A stretch of 7,412 nt of DNA from a virus. Taxonomy: Duplodnaviria; Heunggongvirae; Uroviricota; Caudoviricetes. Numbering within the stretch: the first letter of the stretch is position 1; each line of letters opens with the position of its first letter. Below the pieces are notes generated by a model. It was not told the DNA's origin, searched no databases, and was given only the letters and a program-made list of their open reading frames with translations. The position numbers and the translations under genes are program-made. The stretch lies in the IMG/VR virus record IMGVR_UViG_2563366903_000001; one strand, written 5' to 3'. Below, piece after piece: positions 4,256 to 5,475 of this stretch.

Positions 4256-5475
4256 ATGAACGTGAACTGTCCATTATCCGTGCACTGGGCGAAGAATTCG
4301 CCGCGGTGATAACGGATTTACAGCGTACATTTGAGGGGAAAATAGCCGCGCAGGCACAAATGTTTGAAGAAAAACTGGCTTCCCTGTCTGTGGTATTACA
4401 GAAGTGCGTGACGGGCGATGATGTGCGTCCGATGCTTGAGCAGATGGTGAAGGAGGCTGTAAGCCATATTCCTGTTCCGCGTGATGGTCGTGACTACGAT
4501 CCGGATGTTCTGCAGAAGGCGGTGAATGATGCGGTCGCAAATATTCCGCAGCCAGCGGACGGTAAAAGTCTCACCCCGGATGATGTGCGTCCGATGCTTG
4601 AACAGATGGTGAAGGAGGCGGTAAGCCATATCCCTGTTCCGCGCGACGGTCGTGACTATGATCCCGATGTTCTGCAGAAGGCGGTGAATGATGCGGTCGC
4701 AAATATTCCGCAGCCGGCGGACGGTAAAAGTCTCACCCCGGATGATGTGCGTCCGATGCTTGAACAGATGGTGAAGGAGGCGGTAAGCCATATTCCTGTT
4801 CCGCGTGATGGTCGTGACTACGATCCGGAAGTATTGCAGAAGGCGGTGAATGATGCGGTTGCGAATATTCCGGTACCGGCGAACGGTAAAAGTATCACTC
4901 CCGATGATGTGCGTCCGATGCTTGAGCAGATGGTGAAGGAGGCGGTAAGCCATATTCCTGTTCCGCGCGACGGTCGTGACTACGATCCGGATGTTCTGCA
5001 GAAGGCGGTTCTGGATGCGGTGAGTGCCCTGCCGGCTCCGCAGGACGGGCGTGATGCCACGGCACTGGAAATACTCCCCGCCATTGACGATCAAAAATCC
5101 TTTCCCCGGGGCACGTATGCCACACACCAGGGCGGACTCTGGCGGGCGTATGAAAAAACGCACGGGATGCGGGGATGGGAATGCCTGGTTGACGGGGTGG
5201 CCGATATTGACGTCAGCATGACCGGCGAACGGTCGTTCACTGTGGTGGTCCGGCAGAGCAGTGGCCAGCGTACGGAAAAAACATTTTCCCTGCCGGTGAT
5301 GCTCTACCGCGGTGTGTTCAGAGCCGGTGAAACCTACCACCCCGGCGATACGGTGACGTGGGGGGGCTCGCTGTGGCACTGCAACAGTATGACCGAAGAT
5401 AAACCCGGAGAAGCTCATTCATCAGCCTGGACCCTGGCTGCAAAACGTGGGCGGGATGCAGGAGGCGGAAAATGA
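4252..5475 (+). CDS. Repeat-containing putative virion protein of unknown function (407 aa): N-terminal coiled-coil, 54-aa tandem repeats, C-terminal carbohydrate-binding-like domain
   Basis: ATG overlaps the portal stop (ATGA at 4252-4255) and the stop overlaps the adaptor start (ATGA at 5472-5475). Codon bias matches the operon. The protein has about 3.7 tandem copies of DDVRPMLEQMVKEAVSHIPVPRDGRDYDPDVLQKAVNDAVANIPQPADGKSLTP. The C-terminus has a Y..GD.VT..G..W......T...PG.....W.L pattern. Confidence 0.75.
   Translation: MNERELSIIRALGEEFAAVITDLQRTFEGKIAAQAQMFEEKLASLSVVLQKCVTGDDVRPMLEQMVKEAVSHIPVPRDGRDYDPDVLQKAVNDAVANIPQPADGKSLTPDDVRPMLEQMVKEAVSHIPVPRDGRDYDPDVLQKAVNDAVANIPQPADGKSLTPDDVRPMLEQMVKEAVSHIPVPRDGRDYDPEVLQKAVNDAVANIPVPANGKSITPDDVRPMLEQMVKEAVSHIPVPRDGRDYDPDVLQKAVLDAVSALPAPQDGRDATALEILPAIDDQKSFPRGTYATHQGGLWRAYEKTHGMRGWECLVDGVADIDVSMTGERSFTVVVRQSSGQRTEKTFSLPVMLYRGVFRAGETYHPGDTVTWGGSLWHCNSMTEDKPGEAHSSAWTLAAKRGRDAGGGK
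4417..5009. repeat. In-frame tandem direct repeat, 162-bp unit, ~3.7 copies (units start at 4417, 4579, 4741, 4903; degenerate continuation to ~5058)
   Basis: Direct comparison of units: copy 1 and copy 2 are identical at 154 of 162 nt. Each unit holds two ~27-aa sub-repeats (IPxPxDG....PD.V...). Confidence 0.9.

Follow-up and report, generated by a model that had tools for sequence, protein, structure and literature searches.

What is a carbohydrate-binding signature doing on a protein encoded in the head-neck module of a tailed phage? The question is raised by a 7,412-nucleotide (nt) stretch of DNA, IMG/VR virus record IMGVR_UViG_2563366903_000001, the whole of which was analyzed and is called the window here. 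Between its genes for the portal protein and for a head-tail adaptor lies an open reading frame, ORF X, encoding a repeat protein of 407 amino acids (aa) that we call X (Table 1). A sequence-only reading of the window had noticed by eye that the C-terminal end of X resembles carbohydrate-binding modules (CBMs) of the CBM5/12 type, had seen a weaker copy upstream, and had proposed that a head-module protein binds glycans. We find that the C-terminal segment is predicted to adopt the CBM5/12 fold and that the aromatic residues with which CBM5 modules bind chitin are absent across the family. Our tentative interpretation is that X is a fibre-like accessory protein of the portal vertex.

The two peptides that the sequence-only reading had singled out are both present in ORF X. 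GETYHPGD...AWTLA corresponds to residues 359-396 (nt 5326-5439) and TYATHQGG...GWECL to residues 288-312 (nt 5113-5187), each no more than a few bases from where it had been placed. When residues 267-407 are searched in isolation, the sole Pfam match is CBM_5_12 (PF02839) at residues 357-379 with E=5.1e-5, which agrees with the proposed family, but the score of 23.6 bits falls short of the 26.2-bit gathering score. The full protein scores 21.0 bits, and a 55-aa fragment alone matches at E=1.9e-4. Across the family the same model is matched by 27 of 61 diverse members at E<=1e-3 (best 2.3e-7), and a chance motif is excluded for this segment. ORF X shares with CBM5/CBM12 the motif Y..GD.V.[YW].G..[YW]. 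Searches of solved structures with phmmer and with a profile gave weak matches (7b5h_AE at E 0.1-0.2, 2rts at 0.5) that are useful only as alignments. The resemblance is already present in public annotation, where some GenBank records read 'carbohydrate binding domain protein' and relatives have faint PF02839 matches.

An AlphaFold2 model of residues 267-407, built with 25 homologues, is all-beta with ten strands (predicted local distance difference test score 86.2). This 141-aa domain, the knob, consists of unit 1 (residues 284-313), a central sheet (residues 316-346) and unit 2 (residues 351-397). Unit 2 is modelled as the small antiparallel beta-sheet 'ski-boot' fold of ~45-60 residues seen in CBM5/12. 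Lower-ranked matches in the fold comparison of the knob model include Anabaena Cis13/All3316 (score 5.2), the Pa193 tail fibre gp47 (5.2), the EGZ cellulose-binding domain (4.9) and the chitin-binding domain of Bacillus circulans ChiA1 (3.7, rank 20). Foldseek gave weaker matches, yet to the same targets with probability 1.0; against the PDB it returned no match at E<=1e-3. Foldseek matches to cyanovirin-N were rejected as noise (template modelling score 0.17-0.24, root-mean-square deviation >10 Å). The central sheet had no specific fold match. The strong fold signal is located in residues 351-397, which the model identifies as a divergent CBM5/12-fold module. Profile and predicted fold thus agree with the sequence-only reading on a CBM5/12-type signature in the C-terminal ~50 residues.

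The weaker upstream copy fared less well. Unit 1 has no Pfam match, but an hhalign comparison of the two units (61 relatives) places them in the register that had been proposed, [FY]xxG[TD]xxT[HW]xGxLW...T...W, at P=4.3e-4 and a probability of 34%. From this alignment unit 1 could at best be a degenerate half-repeat of unit 2. Separately, C311 (in W-E-C) is at least 90% conserved among relatives and C377 (in W-H-C) is cysteine in only 43 of 61, which makes a conserved disulfide in the knob unlikely.

Binding residues are well defined in CBM5, where an exposed, almost fully conserved Y-W or W-W pair and a third surface aromatic bind chitin and two other aromatics belong to the core (Y265 and W299 in CjCBM5) (PMC8449059). 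We mapped these positions onto ORF X through an hmmsearch alignment to the Pyrococcus furiosus module 2rts. The core aromatics are kept: Y362 is tyrosine in 58 of 61 relatives and W393 is tryptophan in 59 of 61. Opposite the chitin-binding pair X has S379-M380, two positions that are each aromatic in 1 of 61 relatives, and opposite the third aromatic it has S391, a position that is aromatic in none of the 61. By this alignment unit 2 is a CBM5/12-fold domain lacking the canonical binding platform. Because the binding aromatics are absent, the fold does not imply glycan binding, and the function proposed in the sequence-only reading is not supported. Other conserved residues (D366, T369, S373, K384, P385, W370 and W375) could possibly form a site for some ligand.

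Comparison with known CBM5/CBM12 modules gives the same picture. X has the motif and both core aromatics in common with bacterial chitinases such as Serratia marcescens ChiB and Streptomyces griseus ChiC (2D49); further comparators are P. furiosus ChiA (2RTS) and B. circulans ChiA1 (1ED7). Unlike them, X scores below the Pfam gathering threshold and is without the Y/W-W pair and the third aromatic, and its module sits not on a carbohydrate-active enzyme but inside the larger knob of a phage structural protein. The best direct sequence match among solved structures is Cis13 (All3316, PDB 7B5H chain AE; FHGIWKPGQTYQKGDVVYYNHSLW) of the Anabaena thylakoid-anchored contractile injection system, though this match is weak (E 0.1-0.2). 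Cis13 carries the same module in a phage-tail-like machine; it differs from X in belonging to the baseplate, in having a predicted transmembrane domain and in carrying the module at the N-terminus. The CBM5/12 fold lies within the part of Cis13 resolved by cryo-electron microscopy of the baseplate. We read its role there as docking, which is our own interpretation. If that role is docking, the CBM5/12 fold alone does not imply sugar binding.

The remainder of X is a putative attachment end followed by a spacer. Residues 1-55 look helical by eye and may attach the protein; the N-terminal sequence MNERELSIIRALGEEF... is kept in Salmonella and Klebsiella relatives. A homologue search with the N-terminal 110 aa returned short E. 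coli fragments only, and this search seems to return proteins of about the query length. The spacer of 54-aa repeats is acidic, with an isoelectric point (pI) of 4.5, and Tandem Repeats Finder (TRF) reports a period of 162, 3.7 copies and 92% match. ORF X lengths in related loci are 245, 353, 407, 461, 515 and 569 aa, in steps of the 54-aa repeat. The collagen G-X-Y repeat model PF01391 has no match in the window protein, which contains only short PxPxDGxD motifs; collagen triple-helix repeats matching PF01391 occur in 12 of 61 diverse relatives, for example just before the knob in the relative P0114. The ORF X family therefore comprises distinct proteins in which an N-terminal helix is joined by a variable spacer, of repeats or collagen, to a conserved knob at the C-terminus. 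The repeats of the window are near-identical to one another and polymorphic in copy number among relatives, and numerous 'partial' database entries suggest that they may break short-read assemblies.

Other profile matches to ORF X were rejected or uninformative. Pfam TetR_C_35 (32.2 bits, cutoff 26.7) at residues 44-136 and in later repeats is almost certainly a false positive of tandem helical repeats, and DUF4244 (28.9 bits, cutoff 27) on the repeat region was likewise rejected as repeat-driven; both almost certainly pass their cutoffs only because scores sum over the tandem helical repeats. No catalytic domain was found with Pfam, NCBIfam or PHROGs, and NCBIfam gave nothing relevant. PHROGs returned families labelled 'portal protein', families without a known function, and weak matches to two tail-fibre families over residues 303-401. 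The 'portal protein' label arises because relatives are fused to the portal: the portal domain PF04860 has no match in ORF 4252-5475 and is present in the upstream ORF 2891-4255.

The family is widespread and its knob is strongly conserved. In a search of 1.84 billion representative proteins, the knob profile matched 7875 clusters (50% identity) at E<=1e-3, 4420 at E<=1e-10 and at least 959 at E<=1e-30. Among the top 148 representatives, whose median length is 337 aa, only 2 contain a portal segment, so that a stand-alone X, without portal fusion in 146 of 148, is the norm across the family; among the 61 diverse members a portal domain is likewise found in 2. The knob is 55-71% identical to homologues from Klebsiella, Salmonella and Burkholderiaceae (Caballeronia, Paraburkholderia). 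Across genera no other part of the protein is conserved as well as the knob (5050-5472), whereas the N-terminus and repeats (4252-5049) diverge. Ratios of nonsynonymous to synonymous substitution rates (dN/dS) among E. coli alleles indicate purifying selection, at 0.20 for the knob, 0.11 for the CBM unit and 0.10 for the portal. Judged from these comparisons, purifying selection and cross-genus identity point to one conserved ligand or partner.

The interpretation that we prefer, while holding it only tentatively, is that X is a fibre-like minor virion protein of the portal vertex, an accessory fibre at the neck or head with a knob that binds some conserved ligand. X would be part of the virion, probably at low copy number. 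Its N-terminal helical segment would attach it at the portal vertex, the 54-aa repeats would serve as a spacer of variable length, and the knob would be distal. The knob would bind a single ligand, either a generic saccharide through a non-canonical surface or a conserved partner. Its role would then resemble that of T4 whiskers or of the neck fibres of cyanophage A-1(L) and differ from that of a receptor-binding tip that sets host range. What the analysis shows is the modelled fold, the arrangement of domains, the order of the genes, their conservation and the occurrence of split and fused forms; from there we infer presence in the virion, a trimeric state, an external position and any ligand. 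In favour of a fibre are the variation in repeat copy number, the collagen repeats of relatives, the recurrence of the fold in tail fibres and the acidic spacer, together with the conserved gene order, the prevalence of stand-alone X and the overlap of its start codon with the portal stop.

There are precedents for such a protein in both gene order and architecture. The whiskers of T4 (fibritin) are trimeric accessory neck fibres whose gene, wac, adjoins neck genes 13 and 14, an arrangement paralleled by the position of X beside the adaptor gene. Neck fibres of A-1(L) carry a distal CBM, which did not bind the host (PMC10966104). These gp82-gp81-gp80 fibres are trimeric and neck-anchored, and so offer a precedent for what is proposed for X; their genes lie far from the neck genes of A-1(L), unlike ORF X, which adjoins the adaptor gene. 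Pfam detected no sequence homology of X to the A-1(L) neck fibres or to T4 whiskers. Should Stx-converting and other enterobacterial prophages indeed encode in X an external neck fibre tipped with a CBM, X could influence adsorption or gut persistence.

The portal and X are separate proteins in some phages and a single protein in others. In the window a tract of five G residues (G5) lies shortly before the portal stop codon at 4253-4255 (the protein ends ...FRGILKK*), and X starts at an overlapping ATG. Relatives with six (G6) read through as ...FRGDTEKM(T/N)EREL..., and portal and X form one protein of ~860 aa. Such proteins are annotated 'portal protein' in YYZ-2008 (gp54) and phage 2851 (GP3), and their C-terminal 407 aa are ORF X at 93-95% nucleotide identity; relative to these two phages the window has G5 instead of G6 and so encodes a portal of 454 aa and, separately, X of 407 aa. 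BP-4795 and Lys8385Vzw have the split form. We counted both states in 84 related loci, of which 80 are IMG/VR contigs and the others are several GenBank phages plus the window itself. G5 occurs in 52 loci, all with ORF X intact, and G6 in 32, with ORF X intact in 29; both states occur on two junction haplotypes. As the fused form shows, phages tolerate having X tethered to the portal at its capsid-internal end, and phage 2851 is reportedly infectious. A distant 1237-aa representative, P0134, whose portal is 47% identical, also has a portal-X fusion, in which ~25 'LPEPEPLPDI..MV..AV..I' repeats lead up to the same knob; the fusion either arose independently or is a metagenomic frameshift artefact.

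Translation of X appears to be tied to that of the portal. The ATG of ORF X overlaps the portal stop codon (ATGA), which suggests coupled, low-level translation, and its stop codon overlaps the adaptor ATG. A predicted RNA structure at 4254-4332 (-29.4 kcal/mol, z=-2.86, reached by 2 of 200 shuffles) begins ~14 nt past the G tract and covers the ORF X start codon. It is the only downstream structure and may enforce translational coupling of ORF X to portal termination. The structure gives programmed -1 frameshifting at the G tract no support but does not exclude it either; its spacing is unlike that of a classical stimulator and better fits translational coupling. In principle, slippage at the G tract could yield both products from either allele.

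Several observations weigh against X as an external fibre with a ligand-binding knob. Strong conservation of the knob is the opposite of what is typical of a receptor-binding fibre or host-range tip, and the three chitin-binding aromatics have been lost. Phage 2851 and 32 of the 84 E. coli loci encode X as an in-frame extension of the portal C-terminus. To our knowledge this terminus faces the capsid interior in all solved portals, and a fused X could therefore hardly be an external fibre; the distant P0134 is also portal-fused. Literature searches found no proteomic or imaging evidence of X in virions.

The same fusions speak for placing X inside the head, the main alternative, which we consider somewhat unlikely. 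X would be an internal minor head protein on the portal crown, in a position analogous to SPP1 gp7 and MuF proteins or to the P22 portal barrel, and its knob would bind DNA, the portal or, after ejection, peptidoglycan. Intact ORF X in most fused loci, a knob dN/dS that is alike in G6 (0.19) and G5 (0.20) alleles, and P0134, if its fusion arose independently, are consistent with an internal protein, as is a knob conserved across hosts with very different surface glycans, which fits a universal target. SPP1 gp7 and Mu F-like minor head proteins are encoded directly after the portal, are low-copy and associate with the portal. ORF X occupies the same position, with its start and stop codons coupled to its neighbors, but it has no PF04233 (MuF) similarity in Pfam searches and has instead a repeat, collagen and beta-knob architecture. 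We know of no internal head protein with a collagen-like or fibre-like architecture, and both the collagen repeats of relatives and the strongly acidic spacer argue against an internal location. T4 portals tolerate C-terminal fusions, so a portal-X fusion shows tolerance and not native location. G6 is found on only two haplotype backgrounds and may represent few events amplified by clonal O157 sampling. An internal X would add a new type of head protein associated with the portal.

It is unlikely, though less easily set aside than the readings that follow, that the knob binds no external ligand and serves as the folding or trimerisation nucleus of the stalk, with the CBM5/12 fold as a scaffold. 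Such a role would accord with the loss of binding aromatics alongside retention of core aromatics, with the strong conservation of the knob and with collagen repeats directly upstream of it in some relatives. It would also accord with Cis13, where the same fold lies within residues 1-100, the part resolved in the Anabaena baseplate structure, which we read as a docking role. However, for a nucleation domain a size of 141 aa, in three sub-domains, is large, and invariant residues of polar or surface type (D366, K384, P385, T369, S373) suggest a binding site.

A broader proposal, which we think improbable, is that X and its relatives form a very widespread class of portal-vertex appendages with a repeat or collagen stalk and a CBM5/12-derived knob, in which G5/G6 would determine whether X is deployed as a free fibre or inside the capsid, tethered to the portal. 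Switching could occur by heritable slippage or by ribosomal slippage, the latter giving both products, and would make X a virion component under phase-variable or frameshift control. A canonical chitin- or cellulose-binding CBM5/12 working as in chitinases is barely credible, because the Y/W-W pair and third aromatic are absent family-wide, the Pfam score is under the gathering threshold, ORF X has no carbohydrate-active catalytic domain, and the hosts are enterobacteria, Burkholderiaceae and rhizobia, which are without chitin.

Table 1. Features of the window, with positions counted from its first nucleotide and residues counted in X
Feature	Position (nt)	Strand	Basis or remark
TerL nuclease domain	64-678		Pfam
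S78 protease fused to HK97-type capsid protein	742-2679		Pfam
Portal protein gene, 454 aa	2891-4255	+	PF04860, E=5.5e-81; directly upstream of ORF X
G5 tract near portal gene end	4236-4240	+	Comparison with YYZ-2008; junction 4225-4255
ORF X, 407 aa, acidic (pI 5.0) repeat protein	4252-5475	+	
N-terminal ~55-aa region, residues 1-55	4252-4416	+	By eye helical, coiled-coil-like
Four tandem 162-nt / 54-aa repeats, residues 56-271	4417-5064	+	TRF
C-terminal beta-rich domain (knob), 141 aa, residues 267-407	5050-5472	+	AlphaFold2
Unit 1, residues 284-313, beta-hairpin and one strand	5101-5190	+	
Central three-stranded sheet between units, residues 316-346	5197-5289	+	DSSP strands 50-57, 62-69, 74-80 of models
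Unit 2, residues 351-397, predicted CBM5/12-fold module	5302-5442	+	
gp6-like head-tail adaptor (Ad1) gene	5472-5798	+	PF05135, E=1.2e-7; directly downstream of ORF X
Head completion protein	5808-6158		Pfam
HK97 gp10-like protein	6155-6601		Pfam
Tail completion protein	6598-6942		Pfam

The DNA of the window comes from a lambdoid, HK97-type E. coli prophage (Pankowvirus-like), of which it forms the head-neck module. It has 93-95% nucleotide identity to Pankowvirus-type Stx phages (YYZ-2008, 2851, 1717), and the locus is found in 1246 of 5426 complete E. coli genomes. Pfam matches of the neighboring genes and their order (Table 1) support the placement of the repeat protein in a head/neck module made in the sequence-only reading. 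The adaptor counterpart in YYZ-2008 is annotated Ad1. The order portal, X, adaptor and head completion is kept in metagenomic phages with a 57%-identical X and also in Salmonella phage FSL SP-016 and Rhizobium phage RHph_X2_26. In a Caballeronia prophage X is again followed by a connector and a head completion gene, with no portal gene called upstream of X.

Public names for the family are inconsistent and stand mostly on contig-end fragments: 'phage portal protein', 'gp6-like head-tail connector protein' and 'carbohydrate binding domain protein'. For ORF X the name 'portal protein' comes from its G6-fused relatives. The connector name in Klebsiella and Salmonella belongs to contig-end fragments only, and no fusion of X to the adaptor was seen. 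Literature searches found no study of the ORF X protein or of any family member. What is routinely called 'portal protein', or in other genera 'gp6-like connector', is thus mislabelled and is a distinct fibre-like protein. In the deposited genome of Escherichia phage vB_EcoS_phi330 (PV189401.1), ORF X and several adjacent structural genes are fragmented, which suggests homopolymer sequencing errors rather than real pseudogenes.

Two further observations concern genes upstream of ORF X. The protease and capsid genes form one 645-aa ORF, with the S78 prohead protease domain at residues 48-153 and the HK97-type major capsid domain at residues 386-635. This fusion is also present in a metagenomic relative (L083), and Salmonella phage FSL SP-016 (L087) has an ORF of equal size at that place. 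A 73-aa ORF without a family match follows at 2724-2945 and overlaps the first 55 nt of the portal gene (2891). It has counterparts at the same place, as a 222-nt annotated coding sequence in YYZ-2008 and BP-4795 and as a 78-aa ORF in L083.
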